From an uncultured Oscillospiraceae bacterium (GTDB lineage: Bacteria; Bacillota; Clostridia; Oscillospirales; Acutalibacteraceae), in the NCBI GenBank assembly GCA_900548545.1, contig URKX01000001.1, positions 9,985 through 73,984 on the forward strand: 64,000 nt of DNA, in the 5' to 3' direction. The notes beneath the pieces are model-generated. The model was given only the letters and a program-made list of their open reading frames with translations. It did no database searches and was not told where the DNA came from. Position 1 is the first letter of the stretch, and the number at the start of each line of letters is the position of its first letter. Made by a program: the position numbers and the translations under genes. Shown here in pieces: positions 23,901-40,643 of this stretch.

Positions 23901-24180
23901 ATCCTTTAGCTGTCGCTTTTTTTATCACTTATACGCTTTAAAGTTGACACGCTTTAAAGTGATGAAATTTTAACACAAAAGCGGGAAAAAGGCAAGCCTG
24001 AATCCGCGAAAATTCCCCCGGTTTACAGCGTTTTCCCTCCCAGGGCGGCCGGCAGGCGCACCTTCATAGAATATTCACCTCTTTTTCTTGCTTTTGCCAC
24101 AGTTAGCGGGTACAATAAAATTACATTGGGGGAAAGCACCCAGGGAGAGAGAACTTTCGGAAAAAGGGAGGGCCTGTTTT

Positions 24181-24876
24181 ATGGCGTCTGGAAAGATCCT
24201 GATTGTGGACGACGATACCAATATTTGCGAGCTGCTGCGGCTCTATATAGAAAAGGAAGGCTTTGAAGCATCTATTGCCAACGATGGGGAAGCCGGTTTG
24301 AGGATGTTCGATACCGTAAACCCTGACTTGATCCTGCTGGACATCATGCTTCCCGGTTTGGACGGATGGCAGGTGTGCCGGGAGATCCGGAAAAAATCCG
24401 ATTGCCCCATCATCATGCTCACCGCCAAGGGCGAGGTGTTCGACAAGGTGCTGGGATTGGAACTGGGGGCCGACGACTATGTGGTGAAGCCCTTTGAAAC
24501 AAAAGAGGTGGTCGCCCGGATCAACGCCGTGCTGCGCCGCAGCGGCAAGCACAGCGAGGACAAGGGCGAAAACAAGGTGGTTACCTATGAAAACCTGTCC
24601 ATCAACCTGACTAACTACGAGCTGAAGGTAAATGGCGTCCAGGTGGACACGCCCCCCAAGGAGATGGAGCTGATCTATCACCTGGCGTCCAACCCCAACC
24701 GGGTGTTCACCCGGGACCAGCTGCTGGACGAGGTGTGGGGCTTTGACTACTACGGCGACAGCCGCACGGTGGATGTCCACGTAAAGCGGCTGCGGGAAAA
24801 GCTGGAAGGCGCGTCGGACAAGTGGGCCCTGAAGACCGTGTGGGGCGTGGGATATAAATTTGAGGTAAAAGAATGA
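24181..24876 (+). CDS. OmpR-family two-component response regulator
   Basis: KILIVDDDTNICELL...DLILLDIMLPGLDGW receiver domain plus winged-helix output domain. Confidence 0.9.
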   Translation: MASGKILIVDDDTNICELLRLYIEKEGFEASIANDGEAGLRMFDTVNPDLILLDIMLPGLDGWQVCREIRKKSDCPIIMLTAKGEVFDKVLGLELGADDYVVKPFETKEVVARINAVLRRSGKHSEDKGENKVVTYENLSINLTNYELKVNGVQVDTPPKEMELIYHLASNPNRVFTRDQLLDEVWGFDYYGDSRTVDVHVKRLREKLEGASDKWALKTVWGVGYKFEVKE

Positions 24877-24906
24877 GCAGCTTTTAGTGGCTGAGAAAGG
24901 CGAGCC

Positions 24907-26478
24907 ATGCAAAAGAGTATTTTTACAAGGGTGTTGAGCCTGACCATGGGGATCGTGGTGCTCAGCTTTATCCTGCTGGGCGGGGTGATGATGGCCTTTT
25001 TCGGCCAGTATTGGCAGACGGAAAAGAAAGAGCTGCTCACCCAAAACGCCAACTCCATTTCCAAGATGTCCAGCGTGTTCCTGGCCCGTTCCGGCGAGGG
25101 CAACTACACCCTGGAAACTTCGGTGCTCAAGGGGTTTATCGACGCCTATTCCGCCAGCATTGACGCGGATATCTTCATCACTGACCTGGAGGGGAACGTC
25201 CTGCTGGGAAACTATCCCAACAGCAACCTGTCCGCCCCCCAGGCGGTGCCCCGGCAGATTGTCACGCAAGCCTCCCAGGGGCAGTATGAAGGCCGGGGCA
25301 CCTTTGGCGGGCTGTACCAAAAACAGTTTTACATCATCGGCGTGCCCATGTATGCCGGCAGCGAAAAAGAGGTTTGTGTGGGGGTGGTGTTCGCCTCCAC
25401 CAGCGTCAGCTCGGTAAACGCCTTCCAGGGGGAGGCGCTGCAGATGTTCCTGGTGGCTGCCGCCGCGGCCCTGGGTGTCACCTTCTGTGTGGTGGGCGCC
25501 TTTGCTTACCGGCTGGTGAAGCCTATGCGGCAGATGTCCGCCGCGGCCCGCAGCTTTGGCGGCGGGGACTTTTCCGTGCGGGTGCCGGTGACCAGCGCCG
25601 ATGAGCTGGGCCAGCTGGCCATCTCCTTTAACAACATGGCCAATTCCCTGTCCAACTCCGAGGGGACCCGCAGGAGCTTTATCGCCAACGTGTCCCACGA
25701 GCTGAAGACCCCCATGACCACCATTGCCGGGTTTGTCGACGGCATTTTAGACGGCACCATCCCCCCCGAGCAGCAGGGAAAATACCTGCACATCGTGTCT
25801 GACGAGGTGAAACGCCTGTCGAGGCTTGTGAAGTCCATGCTGGACCTGTCCCGGATCGACAGCGGGGAGATGAAGCTGCACCCCACCCAGTTTGACATCA
25901 CCCAGACCTTGGTGACCACCCTGCTGACCTTCGAGCAGAAGATCGACGAGAAAGGGATCGAGATCCGGGGGCTGGAGGAAACCTCCCCGCAAATGGTGCT
26001 GGGCGACCAGGACCTGCTGCACCAGGTGGTGTATAACCTCATTGAAAACGCGGTAAAATTTACAAATCAGGATGGCTACATCAAGGTTCAGGTCACAGAC
26101 GGCATCGACCGCACCACCGTGGTGATTGAGAACAGTGGCCCCGGCATCGCCCCGGAGGAACTGCCCATGATCTTTGAGCGGTTCTACAAAACGGACAAGT
26201 CCCGCAGCCGGGATAAGAACGGCATGGGCCTGGGGCTGTACATTGTGCGGACTATCTTGAAACTACACGGGGGGGATATCAGCGTTTCGTCGGTGATGGG
26301 GGAATTCTGCCGGTTCGAGTTTACCATCCCGAAACCCCAGGAGGCCCCTAAGCTGAAGGACACGGGCTCTTTTAAGCTGAAAGAAGCTCCCTCCCGTGGG
26401 AAAGAGAAGAAAGAGCTGCGCCACGAGATGGCGGAGCCTGAAAGGAGCAAGGACGATGACAGACCACCAGAAGAATGA
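24907..26478 (+). CDS. sensor histidine kinase (2 TM, HAMP, HisKA, HATPase_c)
   Basis: SHELKTPMT H-box and GGDISVSS/GLGL ATP-lid motifs; immediately downstream of the response regulator. Confidence 0.9.
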   Translation: MQKSIFTRVLSLTMGIVVLSFILLGGVMMAFFGQYWQTEKKELLTQNANSISKMSSVFLARSGEGNYTLETSVLKGFIDAYSASIDADIFITDLEGNVLLGNYPNSNLSAPQAVPRQIVTQASQGQYEGRGTFGGLYQKQFYIIGVPMYAGSEKEVCVGVVFASTSVSSVNAFQGEALQMFLVAAAAALGVTFCVVGAFAYRLVKPMRQMSAAARSFGGGDFSVRVPVTSADELGQLAISFNNMANSLSNSEGTRRSFIANVSHELKTPMTTIAGFVDGILDGTIPPEQQGKYLHIVSDEVKRLSRLVKSMLDLSRIDSGEMKLHPTQFDITQTLVTTLLTFEQKIDEKGIEIRGLEETSPQMVLGDQDLLHQVVYNLIENAVKFTNQDGYIKVQVTDGIDRTTVVIENSGPGIAPEELPMIFERFYKTDKSRSRDKNGMGLGLYIVRTILKLHGGDISVSSVMGEFCRFEFTIPKPQEAPKLKDTGSFKLKEAPSRGKEKKELRHEMAEPERSKDDDRPPEE

Positions 26479-28081
26479 CTTTCCAGGGGCCCAGGCGCCC
26501 GCGGGGGAAACGCCCTCTCAGCCTGCGATAGAAGAGGCCCGGGAGATGTCCCCTGGACAGGGTGCCCCGGAGGCGGCCGGGGAAGAAGCCTTGCCCTCCC
26601 AGCAGGCGGAAGCGGCGCCCCAAGGGGAGCCCTCCCAACCGGCAGAACCCCCGGTGCCCGACACGGCCGAGCCGGAATACCCCCGGCAGGAGGCTTCCCA
26701 GCCGGCGCCCCCGCCCCAGCAGCCTTGGCCGGGGGGCTTCCCCGGCTATGGAGGGGCCTATCCGCCGCCCCAAGGGCAGTGGGCCCAAGGGTACTATCCC
26801 CAGCAGCCTTGGTATGGGCCGGCTTATGGACAGGCGCCCGCCCCCTATGGGCCGGTGCGGCCGCCCCGGAAAAAGATGTCCCGGGGGCTGAAGGTGTTTT
26901 TGTGGATTGCCTCTGCCCTGACTGCCGGGGCGATCCTGGGCTTTGCTGGCTTTGTGGTGAGCTGGGCTGTGGCGGGACCCCAGATCCAGGCGCCGGTGGT
27001 GGACACCTTGCCCGACGAGGGCCGGCAAGATGAGCCTGAGGCTCCCATCCAGGAGGAAGAACCTCAGCTAGACCTGCCGGATGTGGATGTGACCCCCAAT
27101 GAGGAGGGTGTTGTCATCCACCAAAAGCCCCAGGGGGACGCCCTGGACGCCCAAGCAGTGTATGACAAGGTGGTGAAATCCACCGTGGCTATCACCGTGT
27201 CCTACACAGGGGAGGGCACGGACAGTTCCGGCACGGGGATCATCGCCACCTCGGATGGGTACATCATCACCAACGCCCATGTGGTGCTGAATACCAAAAG
27301 CGTGCTGGTGACGGTGACCACCTATGACGGCCAGCAGTACGACGCGGTGGTGGTGGGCATGGACCGCACCACGGACCTGGCCGTCATTAAGACAAACGAT
27401 TATGGCTTTGCCCCGGCGGAATTTGGCGACGCGGGGGAGCTTTCTATCGGGGAATGGGTGCTGGCCATCGGGAACCCCGGAGGCGAGCGGTTTGCCAGTT
27501 CCCTGACCCGGGGCATTGTTTCCGGCCTGGACCGCGCTGTGGAACGTTACAGTGAAAACGGCATGACTTTCATCCAGACCGATGCAGCCATCAACCCGGG
27601 CAACTCCGGCGGGCCGCTGGTGAATCTGTACGGCCAGGTGGTGGGGATCAACTCCTCGAAGATTGTCACCGATGGCTACGAGGGCATGGGGTTTGCCATC
27701 CCGGTGAGCAAGGCCAAGGACATCATCGACCAGCTGCTTTCCGGCGGCTATGTGGAGGGCCGTGTGCGCTTGGGCATCAGCGGCTATGACCTGGGGGACG
27801 AGGCCGCCTTCTATGGGCTGCCCAGAGGCTTTATGATCGCATCCATCGACGAGGACAGCTCTTTTGCCGGCACCGAGGCCCAGGTGGAGGACATCATCAT
27901 CGCCATTGACGGGGAAACCGTGGAAGAGCTGCAGGATATCTCCAACCTGCTGCTGCGGTACAGCCCCGGCGACCAGGTGACCGTCACCTTGTACCGGCGC
28001 TCTGCCCATGACTTCAGCGAAGGGGAGGAGATCGAAGTGACGATTACCCTGCTGGAAGACAAGGGGGAAACACAGAAGTAA
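26456..28081 (+). CDS. htrA: HtrA/DegP-family serine protease with PDZ domain, an N-terminal Pro/Gln/Tyr-rich cytoplasmic region and a single TM
   Basis: GNSGGPLVN catalytic-serine motif, TDLAVIK, PDZ domain; ATG 26456 with AAGGAG RBS overlaps the HK 3' end by 23 nt. Confidence 0.85.
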   Translation: MTDHQKNDFPGAQAPAGETPSQPAIEEAREMSPGQGAPEAAGEEALPSQQAEAAPQGEPSQPAEPPVPDTAEPEYPRQEASQPAPPPQQPWPGGFPGYGGAYPPPQGQWAQGYYPQQPWYGPAYGQAPAPYGPVRPPRKKMSRGLKVFLWIASALTAGAILGFAGFVVSWAVAGPQIQAPVVDTLPDEGRQDEPEAPIQEEEPQLDLPDVDVTPNEEGVVIHQKPQGDALDAQAVYDKVVKSTVAITVSYTGEGTDSSGTGIIATSDGYIITNAHVVLNTKSVLVTVTTYDGQQYDAVVVGMDRTTDLAVIKTNDYGFAPAEFGDAGELSIGEWVLAIGNPGGERFASSLTRGIVSGLDRAVERYSENGMTFIQTDAAINPGNSGGPLVNLYGQVVGINSSKIVTDGYEGMGFAIPVSKAKDIIDQLLSGGYVEGRVRLGISGYDLGDEAAFYGLPRGFMIASIDEDSSFAGTEAQVEDIIIAIDGETVEELQDISNLLLRYSPGDQVTVTLYRRSAHDFSEGEEIEVTITLLEDKGETQK

Positions 28082-28658: not shown

Positions 28659-28719
28659 AGCTGCGAAGAAAGGGCGCCCCGGTTTGGCCGGGGCGCCCTG
28701 TTGGTTTTATGAAGAAGGT

Positions 28720-30789
28720 TTATTCGGCGTTTTCCGCCTTGGATTCCTCGATCACCTTCTGCGCCACGTTCTGAGGGGCTTCCTCATAGCGCTCGAACTC
28801 AAAGGTGAAGCTGCCGCGGCCCTGGGTGACCTGGCGGATGAAGGTGGTGAAGTCGTGCATCTCGGCCATGGGGACTTCTGCCTCCACGGTCTGGCGGCCC
28901 TCGCCTGCGGGCTCCATGCCCAGCACGCGGCCGCGGCGCTTGTTCACCTCGCCCATCACGTCGCCCATGTTGCCGTCGGGCACCGTGGCCTTCAGGTGGC
29001 CAATGGGCTCCAAAAGCACGGGGTTCGCCTGGGGCATACCGGCCTTGTAGGCCAGGGTGGCTGCCATCTTAAAGGACATTTCCGAGGAGTCCACCGGGTG
29101 GTAGCTGCCGTCGTACAGCACAGCGGACAGGCCCACTACAGGATACCCGGCCAGGGGCCCCTTCAGGATGCACTCCCGCAGGCCCTTTTCCACCGCGGGG
29201 AAGAAGCCCTTGGGCACGGAGCCGCCCACCACGCGCTCGCCAAACTCCAGGCCGTCGCTGTCGCAGGGGGAGAACTCGATCCACACGTCGCCGAACTGGC
29301 CGTGGCCGCCGGTCTGCTTCTTGTGACGGCCCTGGACCTGCACGGTTTTGCGGATGGTTTCACGGTAGGGCACCTTGGGCTTTTTCAAGGTGATATCCAC
29401 GCCAAACTTGCTCTTCAGCTTGGAAACAGCCACATCCAGGTGCTGCTCGCCCAAGCCGCTGATGATCATTTCGTGGGTTTCGTTGTTGGTGGAGAACCGC
29501 AGGGTGGGGTCCTCTTCGGAGAGCCGCATCATGCCCTGGGCGATCTTGTCTTCCTCGCCCTTCTTGGCGGGGACAATGGCCATGCTCAAAGTGGGGTTGG
29601 GATACTCCACGCCTTCCAGGGTGACTTTCCGGGTGGGGGAGCACAGGGTGTCGCCGGTGTTGGTGGCGGACAGCTTGGGAATGGCGCCAATGTCGCCGGC
29701 CCCGATGTATTTCACATCCACCTGCTTCTTGCCCACCATCATCACGGTCTTGCCGATGCGCTCGGTGGCGCCGGTGCGCATATTCACCAGCTGGGAGTCG
29801 GTGGACAGCTTGCCGGAAACCACTTTCACATAGGACAGCTTGCCGATGAAGGGGTCTGCCACAGTCTTGAAGACGATGGCCGCTGCTGCGCCGTCCTCGT
29901 TGACAGCCAGCTCTGCCGGGTTGCCGTCCACGTCCAGGCCCACTTCGGCGGCCTTCTCCTCTGCGGAGGGGGCCAGCCAGCAGAGGCCGTCCAGGAACTG
30001 CTCCATGCCCCGCATCAGCAGCGCATCGCCGCAGAACACCGGGGTGATGGTGCCGGCCTTCACGCCTTTGCTCACGCCCACGATGACTTCCTCAGGGGTG
30101 AAGGGCTCGCCGGCAAAATATTTCTCAAAGAGCTCGTCGTCGGTTTCGGCAACGGCTTCGTAAATAGCGGTGCGCAGGCCTTCCAGACGGTCGCCCATGT
30201 CCGGCATGGGGACAGCCACCGGTTTGCCGCCGGAGTAATCGTAGGCCTTGTACTCCAACAGGTTGATGTAGATGTTTGCCTGGCCGTCCTGGATGAAGGG
30301 CACCACCACAGGGCACACCGAGGGGCCAAAACTGGCTTTCAGGTCTTCAAACACCCGATAGAACCGGGCGCTCTCGTCGCACAGGCCGTTGACAAAGAAG
30401 ATCTTGGCAAGGCCCTGGCGCTCGGCGGCCGCAAAAGCCTTTTCCGTGCCCACGGCTACGCCGTCCCGGCCGGAAACCACCACCAGAACCGTGTCCGCGG
30501 CCCGCATGGCTTCGCAGGTGCCGCCCTCAAAGTCGAACAGTCCGGGGGCGTCCAGCAGGTTGATCTTTTTATTTTTCCATTCCAGAGGGGCCACCGCCGC
30601 GGAAATGGAAGCCTTCCGGCGGATCTCCTCGGGATCGTAGTCGCACACAGTGTTGCCGTCGCCCACTTTGCCCCGGCGGTCAGAAACCCCAGAGAGGTAC
30701 AGCATGGCCTCCGCCAAGGAGGTCTTGCCCGCGCCGCCATGGCCGGTCACCGCCAGGTTGATGATATTTTTAGCCTGATATTGGTTCAT
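28720..30789 (-). CDS. elongation factor G-like GTPase paralog with degenerate G motifs
   Basis: full five-domain EF-G architecture (G, II, III, IV, V) that aligns to fusA throughout; P-loop GHGGAGKTS retained but DTPGH->DAPGL and NKxD->NGLCD; GGAAGGAG RBS before ATG 30789. Confidence 0.85.
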   Translation of the reverse strand: MNQYQAKNIINLAVTGHGGAGKTSLAEAMLYLSGVSDRRGKVGDGNTVCDYDPEEIRRKASISAAVAPLEWKNKKINLLDAPGLFDFEGGTCEAMRAADTVLVVVSGRDGVAVGTEKAFAAAERQGLAKIFFVNGLCDESARFYRVFEDLKASFGPSVCPVVVPFIQDGQANIYINLLEYKAYDYSGGKPVAVPMPDMGDRLEGLRTAIYEAVAETDDELFEKYFAGEPFTPEEVIVGVSKGVKAGTITPVFCGDALLMRGMEQFLDGLCWLAPSAEEKAAEVGLDVDGNPAELAVNEDGAAAAIVFKTVADPFIGKLSYVKVVSGKLSTDSQLVNMRTGATERIGKTVMMVGKKQVDVKYIGAGDIGAIPKLSATNTGDTLCSPTRKVTLEGVEYPNPTLSMAIVPAKKGEEDKIAQGMMRLSEEDPTLRFSTNNETHEMIISGLGEQHLDVAVSKLKSKFGVDITLKKPKVPYRETIRKTVQVQGRHKKQTGGHGQFGDVWIEFSPCDSDGLEFGERVVGGSVPKGFFPAVEKGLRECILKGPLAGYPVVGLSAVLYDGSYHPVDSSEMSFKMAATLAYKAGMPQANPVLLEPIGHLKATVPDGNMGDVMGEVNKRRGRVLGMEPAGEGRQTVEAEVPMAEMHDFTTFIRQVTQGRGSFTFEFERYEEAPQNVAQKVIEESKAENAE

Positions 30790-31098
30790 AACAAACGAAG
30801 CTCCTTCCACTGCAAAAATAGCGGCCTTTACCGCGTTGCCTAGCAATTCCCTGTTTTGTACAAGTTTTGTGTCACAAGGCATAGCTAATTATATATCAAT
30901 CTCCGAAAGAATACAATGGGAAATCAAAAATACTATGAATTAACCGTTATATGGGAAGCTTTTTTGTTAGAAGTGCCTAAAAGATACCGGGCTGTTCCCA
31001 GGTGGAAAAGGCTGTACCAAGTGGAAAAAAGGGGAAAAGAAACGGGCGCGGGGGATTCCCGCGCCCGGAAGATGGTTCAATGATATGAGAAAAGGTAT

Positions 31099-38831: not shown

Positions 38832-40643
38832 TCACTCATCCAGCTTCAGCACGGACATAAACGCCTCCTGGGGCACTTCCACCGAGCCCAGCTGGCGCAT
38901 CCGTTTTTTGCCTTCCTTTTGCTTTTCCAGCAGCTTCTTTTTCCGGGTGATGTCGCCGCCGTAGCACTTGGCCAGCACGTCCTTGCGCAGGGCTTTCACC
39001 GTTTCCCGGGCAATGATCTTCCCGCCGATGCAGGCCTGGATAGGTACCTCGAACAGCTGGCGGGGGATCTTCTCCTTGAGCTTTTCCGCCATCTTTCTGG
39101 CCCGGGGGTAGGCTTTGTCCGCGTGGATGATGAAGGAGAGGGCGTCCACGATCTCCCCGTTGAGCATGATATCCAGCTTTACCAGCTTGCTGGCCTGGTA
39201 GCCCATCAGCTCGTAGTCAAAAGAGGCGTAGCCCCGGGTGCGGGACTTCAGAGCGTCGAAAAAGTCATAGATGATCTCGTTTAAGGGCAGCTCGTAGTGG
39301 ATGTCCACCCGGTCGGTGTCCAGGTATTTCATGTCCTTGAACACCCCCCGGCGTTCCTGGCACAGCTCCATAATGTTCCCCACGTACTCCGAGGGGGAGT
39401 AGATGTGGGCGTTGCAGATGGGCTCCTCGGCGCTCTGAATCAAAGTGGGGTCCGGGTAGTTGGTGGGGTTGTCAATGGTGATGGTGCTGCCGTCAGTGAG
39501 ATGCAGCTTGTACACCACGCTGGGGGCGGTGGTGATCAGGTCCAGGTCGTACTCCCGCTCCAAACGCTCCTGGATGATCTCCATGTGCAGCAGCCCCAAG
39601 AAGCCGCACCGGAAGCCAAAGCCCAAGGCCACGGAGGTTTCCGGCTCGAAGGTGAGGGAGGCGTCGTTTAATTGCAATTTTTCCAGGGCGTCCCGCAGGT
39701 CGGTGTAATGGGCGCCGTCGGCGGGGTAGATGCCGCAGAACACCATGGGCTGCACCGCCCGGTACCCCTCCAGGGGCTCGGCGGCGGGGCGGTCCTTCAG
39801 GGTGACGGTGTCGCCCACCCGGGCCTGGCGCACGTCCTTGATAGAGGCGGCAATGTAGCCCACCTCCCCGGCGTACAGGGCGTCGGCGGGTTCCAGGGCA
39901 GTGGCCCGCAAAAAGCCGCACTCCACCACGGTGAATTCCCCGCCGGTGGCCATCATGCGGATGGTGTCCCCGGGACGCACGGTGCCGTCCTTGATCCGCA
40001 CGTACACGATAACGCCCCGGTAGGAGTCGTAGTAGGAGTCGAAAATCAGCGCCCGGAGGGGGTCGGCCTCGTTGCCAGCGGGGGCGGGGATGCCGGTGAC
40101 AATGCGTTCCAGCACCTCTTCCACGTTTTGGCCGGTCTTGGCGGAGATGCGGGGGGCGTCCATGGCGGGAATGCCGATCACGTCCTCGATCTCGTGGCAG
40201 ACCCGTTCCGGGTCGGCGCTGGGCAGGTCGATCTTGTTTACCACCGGGACGATCTCCAGCCCGGCGTCCACGGCCAGGTAGGTGTTGGCCAGGGTCTGGG
40301 CTTCGATGCCCTGGGAGGCGTCCACCACCAGCACCGCCCCCTCGCAGGCGGCCAGGGACCGGGAAACCTCGTAGTTAAAGTCCACGTGTCCGGGGGTGTC
40401 GATGAGGTTGAACACATAGTCCTGGCCGTCCGTGGCGGTGTAAACCAGGGTGACAGCATGGGCTTTGATGGTGATGCCCCGCTCCCGTTCCAGGTCCATG
40501 TTGTCCAAAAGCTGGTTTTCCATCTCCCGCAGGGGGACGGACTTGGTCAGTTCCAGGATGCGGTCGGCCAGGGTGGACTTGCCGTGGTCGATGTGGGCCA
40601 CAATGCAGAAATTGCGAATATTGCTTTTATCCATTCTATCCAT
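38832..40643 (-). CDS. lepA: translation elongation factor 4 (LepA)
   Basis: [32 protein letters not shown] canonical G motifs and the LepA C-terminal domain. Confidence 0.95.

Follow-up and report, generated by a model that had tools for sequence, protein, structure and literature searches.

Locus and gene product

The subject of this report is a gene for an elongation factor G2 (EF-G2)-type (EFG II) paralog of EF-G, found in a 64-kb stretch of DNA from an uncultured Oscillospiraceae bacterium (contig URKX01000001.1); "the window" below means this whole stretch. The coding sequence lies on the minus strand at 28720–30789 and yields a protein of 689 amino acids with domains G/G', II, III, IV, and V, as assigned from Pfam and HMMER matches and an AlphaFold2 (AF2) model. 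Since the window has a G+C content of about 60%, long open reading frames (ORFs) occur on both strands across 28.7–30.9 kb; the protein-like frame of this interval is on the minus strand only. The same DNA had been read earlier from its letters alone (the original prediction), and an EF-G paralog without the catalytic histidine and the NKxD motif had been reported here.

The enclosing minus-strand ORF (30882–28720) contains an ATG further upstream, at 30882, from which many public entries for this protein, 720 amino acids long, start. The sequence context marks the ATG at 30789 as the true start codon; it is preceded at a distance of 11 nt by the ribosome-binding site (RBS) GGAAGGAG (30801–30808, minus strand), in which AAGGAG is invariant or nearly so across nine loci. 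The alternative ATG has no RBS of its own, falls on the predicted transcription start, and is not kept in orthologous loci, and the 31-residue N-terminal extension of the 720-residue gene calls is probably an annotation artefact.

All EF-G domains are matched by Pfam (GTP_EFTU, EF-G_D2, EFG_III, EFG_IV, EFG_C), and the RETI...VQG and SEMSFK/GRVLGMEP segments are both present, as expected for the full-length EF-G homolog described originally. HMMER aligns residues 3–681 with EF-G of Thermus thermophilus (2j7k/2bm1, E about 1e-154), the identity to canonical EF-G being 35–38% over the full length. The AF2 model, built on a 50-sequence alignment (predicted local distance difference test, pLDDT, 92.9; predicted template modelling score, pTM, 0.86), was compared with known structures by Foldseek. 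The template modelling score (TM) is 0.94 (7n2v) and 0.93 (7pjv) for ribosome-bound EF-G, 0.90 (9k0z, Mycobacterium smegmatis) and 0.88 (8dmf, Bacteroides thetaiotaomicron) for ribosome-bound EF-G2s, 0.63–0.75 for most free canonical EF-G crystal forms, and 0.83 for free T. thermophilus EF-G-2 (1wdt).

Domain IV is the most conserved domain of the protein, with 50% of columns invariant among the 80 orthologs described below. The tip loops of this domain, which in EF-G reach the decoding centre, are encoded at 29287–29316 (loop I, QTGGHGQFGD, near-invariant in the orthologs and aligned to QTGGRGQYGH of T. thermophilus EF-G) and 29083–29109 (loop II, GSYHPVDSS, invariant in the orthologs and including the conserved tip histidine), both on the minus strand. 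Residues H564, V566, and D567 of loop II are invariant also across 50 diverse members of the family.

G-domain motifs and position in the EF-G2 family

Coordinates of the G-domain motifs, all on the minus strand, were checked by translation. The P-loop (G1) reads GHGGAGKTS (30718–30744) versus AHIDAGKTT in T. thermophilus EF-G; the GK[TS] core is intact, which makes the P-loop acceptable, as judged originally, and the Ile-Asp pair is replaced by Gly-Gly. Switch I (G2) reads RRKASI (30604–30621), that is, RKASI versus RGITI, an "RxxSI" variant in which the Mg-coordinating Thr is replaced by Ser. Switch II (G3) reads DAPGLFDF (30529–30552) versus D(T/A)PGHVDF, and the HMMER alignment, together with the translation, sets Leu84 (30540–30538) on the catalytic histidine. 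The G4 motif reads NGLCD (30376–30390), with NGLC(D) aligned to NKMD of T. thermophilus EF-G: Lys is replaced by Gly, the guanine-specificity Asp by Cys, and an invariant Asp follows at +1. Finally, G5 reads GDA (30022–30030) versus GSA, with Asp for Ser. Thus, where the canonical translational GTPase apparatus has the histidine of DxPGH, the P-loop aspartate, and NKxD, this protein has Leu84, Gly19, and NGLCD, respectively; the two replacements named in the original prediction are there, and a misalignment hiding the histidine is excluded.

Orthologs were taken as the best 80 of at least 584 relatives found when each GTDB species was searched through one genome. Their identity to the query is 63–95%, and their sources are Acutalibacter, Neglectibacter, Faecalispora, Caproiciproducens, "Clostridium" minihomine, and a large number of metagenome-assembled genomes from gut and rumen. 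Position 84 is Leu in 79 of them and Phe in one; none has His, so that the change is not peculiar to one strain. Residues that hold the nucleotide phosphates and magnesium are kept: Gly21, Lys22, and Thr23 of the P-loop and Asp80, Pro82, and Gly83 of switch II are invariant, and the Mg ligand of switch I (position 61) is Ser in 71 and Thr in nine orthologs. Of the EFG II signature positions in G1 and G2, Gly16, His17, and Arg58 are found in 80 out of 80. The ratio of nonsynonymous to synonymous substitution rates (dN/dS), estimated pairwise between the query and eight orthologs, is 0.05–0.11 overall and 0.04–0.09 in the G domain. Judging by these sequence comparisons, the gene is functional and under purifying selection.

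At position 19, aspartate in EF-G, all 80 orthologs have Gly, Ser, or Asn, and Asp is found in just six of 147 more distant representatives, defined in the next paragraph. Replacement of the P-loop Ile-Asp pair (the gate residue and the cation-binding Asp) by small residues in 80 out of 80 orthologs is a second family-wide catalytic loss, and the P-loop of M. smegmatis EF-G2 bears corresponding substitutions (bioRxiv 10.64898/2026.05.25.727771). The family-wide extent of this loss, as seen in the alignments, appears to be previously unreported.

The wider family was sampled by a HMMER search of 1.84 billion cluster representatives, which yielded 31,457 relatives; 147 usable sequences among the best 150, at 35–60% identity, are referred to as representatives. 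At the position of the catalytic histidine, they have Tyr (70), Phe (34), Asp (12), Leu (7), Asn (5), Ala (5), Ser (4), Thr (3), and His (4), and common features are G1 of the form GHxxxGKT and a G2 that is relaxed and contains Ser. The histidine is thus absent in 143 of the 147, and one of the four proteins having it is plainly a canonical EF-G. The original prediction treated the protein as unusual; in fact, loss of the histidine is the rule across EFG II/EF-G2, a family-wide trait which is already described and would not surprise a specialist.

We consider it very probable that the protein belongs to the EFG II/EF-G2 kind, a subfamily catalogued in 2011 (Margus, Remm & Tenson, PMC3150367). 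The signature given in that survey includes G1 GhxxxGKT and a relaxed G2 xxxSx, with RxxSI in a Clostridia sub-subgroup; this sub-subgroup lies near the EFG II root and hence is still close to canonical EF-G. The query has G1 starting with Gly (GHGGAGKTS) and Ser for Thr in G2 (RKASI), as the Clostridia sub-subgroup does, and, similarly to EFG II as presented there, it is a five-domain EF-G with domains IV–V more conserved than domains I–III and a gene outside the str operon. The neighbors of the query's gene are rlmB, a membrane-protein gene, an HtrA gene, and a two-component system, with no adjacent ribosomal-protein or tuf genes. Architecture, G1 and G2 signatures, and gene location place the protein, at the sequence level, in the Clostridia subgroup of EFG II. 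On a neighbor-joining (NJ) tree of 148 sequences, rooted on one clearly canonical representative, it groups with histidine-less proteins with relaxed G2, a grouping limited by its sampling from the top 150 matches to the query and by the family profile, which scores canonical EF-G above the solved EF-G2s.

One disagreement with the same source concerns the remaining motifs. According to this survey, G3 DxPG, G4 NKxD, and G5 SAx are conserved in EFG II, and the query retains DxPG only; the catalytic histidine is not mentioned in the text as far as it was searched. The nearest outgroup orthologs (63–68% identity) have NKxD and GSA, and therefore NGLCD/GDA is best read from the alignment as a derived state within EFG II and not as a ground for exclusion. 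Across the family, G4 and G5 vary far more than was stated in 2011.

Existing equivalog models do not capture the protein. It scores 583.9 bits with TIGR00484 for canonical EF-G (cut-off 659.4; the canonical representative P0216 scores 1148.8), 549.3 bits with NF009377 for "EF-G2" (PRK12740.1-1; cut-off 890), and 542.7 bits with NF058620 for Bacteroidetes EF-G2 (cut-off 1000), the latter match being broken at residue 509. NF009381 was rejected as a family marker: the query passes it, but so does canonical EF-G. A profile of the family gives a higher score to canonical EF-G than to solved EF-G2s (888 vs 765 bits for M. smegmatis EF-G2), and in a PDB search with the EFG II profile, canonical EF-G accordingly ranked above the EF-G2s of known structure. 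The motifs of T. thermophilus and M. smegmatis EF-G2 were obtained with a G-domain query.

Substitutions in G4 and G5 are not independent. The 80 orthologs and the query form a set of 81 sequences, and on their NJ tree, 73 sequences are monophyletic and combine G4 N-[G/A]-x-[C/S/A]-D with G5 G-D-A; the eight most distant orthologs (63–68% identity) combine NK[LM]D with G-[S/A]-[AS]. The two motifs are perfectly coupled across the 81 sequences, and the clade with NGLCD-type G4 and GDA-type G5 spans at least 72 species. Among the 147 representatives, the position of the G4 Asp is occupied by Asp in 128, by Glu in ten, and by neither in nine. Asp in place of the G5 Ser is found in six out of nine representatives without Asp or Glu in G4 vs five out of 138 keeping one of them (odds ratio 53, Fisher p = 2.8e-6). 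The six coupled representatives (P0173, P0189, P0211, P0233, P0246, and P0266) occupy at least four separate places on the NJ tree, where the sequences closest to them have canonical G4 and G5; hence, with the query clade included, loss of the G4 Asp is coupled to an Asp in G5 in at least five separate lineages.

In Ras-like G domains, the hydroxyl of the G5 Ser contacts the G4 Asp that reads N1 and N2 of guanine. Because loss of the G4 Asp is perfectly coupled to the new G5 Asp, the pocket seems remodelled and not decayed: the guanine-reading carboxylate has probably moved from G4 to G5, the pocket being rebuilt under selection rather than abandoned. The invariant Asp at +1 of G4 is a second candidate for guanine reading in the query clade. 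The alternative considered originally, that the protein does not bind guanine specifically, is doubtful given the invariant phosphate and Mg ligands, the low dN/dS of the G domain, and the G4/G5 coupling. The coupled rewiring, recurrent across the family, appears not to have been described previously.

Transcription unit and neighboring genes

The EF-G2 gene is most likely monocistronic and forms its own transcription unit, because a terminator lies upstream, the gene has its own conserved promoter, and a hairpin follows it. The upstream terminator-like hairpin (10 G-C pairs and a T-run; 31043–31067, minus strand) is located 3' of a membrane-protein gene, and the 309-nt spacer between that gene and the EF-G2 start codon carries a candidate sigma-70-type promoter, TTGTAT-17 nt-TATAAT (30888–30916, minus strand). 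A consensus promoter scan reported no promoter at this site, which was read by eye and is supported by conservation: the promoter hexamers, the RBS, and the start codon are kept in nine loci, some of them without upstream synteny. Downstream, 21 nt past the stop codon, a 13-bp G+C-rich hairpin (28671–28699) is a probable bidirectional terminator shared with the convergent genes on the HtrA side.

The 5' untranslated region (UTR) contains the motif AACTTGTACAAA (30855–30866, minus strand), a block conserved in nine loci and possibly an operator. The pattern AACTTGT[GA]CAAA, just downstream of the promoter, is aligned in loci L001, L003, L004, L005, L006, L012, L020, and L072. As a regulon signal, the motif was rejected, its single occurrence in the window being the chance expectation. 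An Rfam search of the UTR at E ≤ 1 yielded only sub-threshold chance matches, with no known leader or riboswitch, and no Cur/BT4338-type site was identified at the gene.

Upstream lie rlmB (35304–34450; TIGR00186, 241 bits) and the gene for the membrane protein of 1110 amino acids (34431–31099), both on the minus strand, so that the three genes are indeed co-oriented, as noted originally. The end of rlmB is 19 nt upstream of the membrane-protein gene, and these two probably form an operon. The link between them and the EF-G2 gene, implied by the original prediction, is weak, and an operon comprising all three was rejected, given the strong intervening terminator, the separate promoter, and synteny limited to roughly a quarter of the loci. 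About 17 of the 80 loci show the order rlmB–membrane protein–EF-G2, and a homolog of the membrane-protein gene is nearby in 20, in 14 of which it is directly upstream and co-oriented. Although absent from most loci, the arrangement looks ancestral from these comparisons, because it is present in the distant NKxD-type outgroup. No other partner is consistently conserved; in other loci, the neighbors are housekeeping genes without relation to one another, among them genes for an ABC ATPase, a pseudouridine synthase, a DUF4830 protein, dihydroxy-acid dehydratase, a PucR-type regulator, fructose-bisphosphate (FBP) aldolase, and OGG.

The 1110-residue protein has a Pro/Gln/Ala-rich, probably disordered N-terminal half, about eight hydrophobic segments (residues 558–683, 748–801, and 1054–1109), and a cytoplasmic region resembling the P and N domains of P1B-type ATPases (CopA of Legionella, 3rfu, E=3.5e-15). 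The motifs DKTGT, GDGxNDxP, and CPC are all missing, and Pfam gives no match even at E ≤ 5. On the other side, genes for an OmpR-type response regulator, a HAMP histidine kinase, and an HtrA-like protease (Trypsin_2 and PDZ domains) at 24088–28081 on the plus strand converge on the EF-G2 gene and share with it the hairpin at 28671–28699; synteny of this block is confined to the closest relatives (L001, L003) and L049. The only other translational GTPase of the window is a canonical LepA/EF4 (TIGR01393, 1001 bits) at 38832–40643 on the minus strand, 8 kb away.

Comparison with characterized factors and proposed function

The catalytic histidine is also missing in three EF-G2s with solved structures. 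In T. thermophilus EF-G-2, switch II is DAPGYGDF (Tyr) and G4 is TKLD; in M. smegmatis EF-G2, they are DTPGYADF (Tyr) and TKLD; and in B. thetaiotaomicron EF-G2, DCPGSDDF (Ser in 7uvp) and NQLD. As in M. smegmatis EF-G2 (9K0Z/9K10), where P-loop, G2, G4, and G5 are degenerate as well, the histidine is replaced in our protein; unlike it, M. smegmatis EF-G2, about 35% identical, keeps TKLD with the specificity Asp, is 709 residues long, and has other indels. T. thermophilus EF-G-2 (1WDT/2DY1; GHAGSGKTT, DAPGYGDF) is likewise a member of EFG II without the histidine and has the same fold, differing from the query in Tyr instead of Leu, in its G4, and in its length of 665 residues. B. thetaiotaomicron EF-G2 (7UVP, 8DMF) shares with the query its origin from a gut anaerobe, lack of the catalytic histidine, an altered G4, and (for the query, most likely) a monocistronic and separately regulated gene, in contrast to which the identity is about 35% (8dmf), the query has Leu and not Ser for His and RKASI versus YGYSV in G2, and the G4 Asp also is lost. 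From canonical EF-G (FusA), the query has retained the conserved domain IV tip loops, domain V, and the fold (TM up to 0.94), and it lacks the histidine, the P-loop Ile-Asp, RGITI, and NKxD/SAx, and is not encoded beside rpsL, rpsG, and tuf.

M. smegmatis EF-G2, with Tyr98 for the catalytic histidine, has neither ribosome-dependent GTPase nor recycling activity and has been called a stress-specific factor, and the substitution H88Y in EF-G1 of the same species nearly abolishes GTPase activity (bioRxiv 10.64898/2026.05.25.727771). Carbon limitation induces the gene fusA2 of B. thetaiotaomicron more than 200-fold, and the bacterium needs this gene to colonize the gut (Townsend et al. 2020, PMC6989115). 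M. smegmatis EF-G2 is non-essential and stress-associated. As for B. thetaiotaomicron EF-G2, Han et al. in 2023 are said to have found that it has no GTPase activity yet supports slow translocation, and an insertion in its domain IV is reportedly needed for release of the factor.

These comparisons suggest the following scheme, in which nucleotide binding, lack of hydrolysis, ribosome binding, and physiological role are proposed by analogy with the characterized EF-G2s. The body of EF-G is retained, including the domain IV tip entering the A site and the G' surface for L7/L12, as are the ligands of the nucleotide phosphates and Mg2+ (GK[TS] of the P-loop, Ser/Thr of switch I, DxxG of switch II). 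Three elements of ribosome-triggered hydrolysis are lost, namely, the switch II histidine (Leu84 in this protein), the Asp of the P-loop, and the Ile residues of the hydrophobic gate. In the Acutalibacteraceae clade, the guanine pocket has in addition been rebuilt, with Lys replaced by Gly and Asp by a small residue in G4, and Ser by Asp in G5. Such a protein may bind the ribosome in the nucleotide-bound "on" conformation and act without GTP hydrolysis, either by slow translocation that saves energy at times when energy or canonical EF-G is scarce, as in the Bacteroides EF-G2 model, or as a stress-specific regulator occupying the factor site, as in the mycobacterial one. We favor this scheme as a whole, an EF-G2-type paralog acting as a ribosome-bound, nucleotide-on factor without hydrolysis, with moderate confidence, and regard the hydrolysis-independent mechanism, taken by itself, as a little better than an even proposition. 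Ribosome binding without normal GTP hydrolysis had been anticipated in the original prediction, and it would agree with the published data on the M. smegmatis and B. thetaiotaomicron factors. Between the two options, the translocase is favored over a pure regulator because of the domain IV conservation, a sequence-based argument.

Several points weigh against the scheme. T. thermophilus EF-G-2, with Tyr instead of the histidine, is reported to keep intrinsic and ribosome-dependent GTPase and translocation; hence, loss of the histidine is suggestive and no proof of inactivity. In domain IV, B. thetaiotaomicron EF-G2 carries an insertion of about 26 residues (7uvp, EPYKEGMPVPDTYKFNGQEFKITVRGTEEIPLEWGGKLVFIN) that is absent from the query, which has FSPCDSDGLEFGERVVGG there; release from the ribosome is thus a difficulty for a factor of this clade that would not hydrolyse GTP. 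Binding of a guanine nucleotide by the rebuilt G4/G5 pocket is a prediction. No second EF-G or canonical fusA is encoded within the 64 kb of the window; according to the 2011 survey, EFG II is always accompanied by another EF-G in the genome, usually EFG I (PMC3150367). Finally, literature searches yielded no biochemical or expression study of any Clostridial EF-G2.

The strongest competitor, in our view considerably less likely than the main scheme, is a stress- or stationary-phase regulator which is not a translocase, and which binds non-rotated 70S ribosomes or 50S subunits and modulates or silences translation. It would follow the example of M. smegmatis EF-G2 (Tyr, TKLD), which attaches to 70S ribosomes in the non-ratcheted state and to 50S, shows minimal GTPase activity, is inactive in recycling, and is described as stress-specific; the AF2 model superposes on this protein (9k0z), and translocation has been held unlikely as the main role of EF-GII (Atkinson 2015). 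On the other hand, the loops of the domain IV tip, needed for translocation and contact with the decoding centre, are the most conserved part, which fits a role in the A site or translocation at least equally well, and the family profile, by its bit scores, is closer to canonical EF-G than to M. smegmatis EF-G2. It is less likely still that the protein remains a working GTPase or NTPase, in which another residue or a ribosomal group replaces the histidine and the changes in G4/G5 may shift base specificity. The activities reported for T. thermophilus EF-G-2, the invariant residues binding phosphate and Mg, and the strong constraint on the G domain speak for such an enzyme; still, Leu offers no group that could orient or activate water, the P-loop has lost its Asp along with the gate Ile, and both the H88Y mutant of M. 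smegmatis EF-G1 and the reported inactivity of the B. thetaiotaomicron and M. smegmatis EF-G2s point the other way.

A role in ribosomal protection or antibiotic resistance, similar to that of Tet(M)/Tet(O) or to fusidic-acid bypass, could be suspected from the homology to ribosomal protection proteins (the tet_protect match) and from the label "TetQ" given to B. thetaiotaomicron EF-G2 by its PDB depositors. It is highly improbable: the score with the tetracycline ribosomal protection model NF012153 is 285.2 bits vs the cut-off of 775, all Tet-specific models are far below threshold, the length and the domain IV loops resemble those of EF-G, no sign of a mobile element was seen around the gene, and the gene is chromosomal, vertically inherited in at least 80 species, and has partly kept its synteny. 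Degeneracy of several canonical G motifs might also indicate a decaying or strain-specific mutated fusA copy, a pseudogene in the making. This explanation, to which we assign next to no probability, is refuted by the ortholog data, with the ORF intact in 80 species-level genomes, the dN/dS values given above, derived motifs which are almost invariant, and conservation of the promoter and RBS.

An EF-G2 without the histidine is the hallmark of a subfamily described since 2007–2011 and dissected biochemically in 2023–2026, and experiments in Bacteroides and mycobacteria have already linked this state to a function independent of GTPase activity. What appears new here is the Clostridial clade itself and the coupled rewiring of G4 and G5, in a family which has lost the P-loop Asp and gate residues besides the histidine. 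The coupling of G4 Asp loss to replacement of the G5 Ser by Asp is a testable hypothesis on how the pocket of a G protein can be rewired. The Clostridial EF-G2 gene is conserved in many abundant Oscillospirales of the gut and rumen. More speculatively, and in our view rather unlikely, if the re-engineered base pocket has a changed nucleotide affinity or specificity, e.g., a weakened hold on GTP or a preference for GDP, (p)ppGpp, or ATP, the factor might serve as a sensor of the nucleotide state, switching ribosomes to slow, hydrolysis-free translocation under energy limitation. Should this reading be true, "GTPase-less translation elongation" would be widespread among gut anaerobes and not a peculiarity of Bacteroides.

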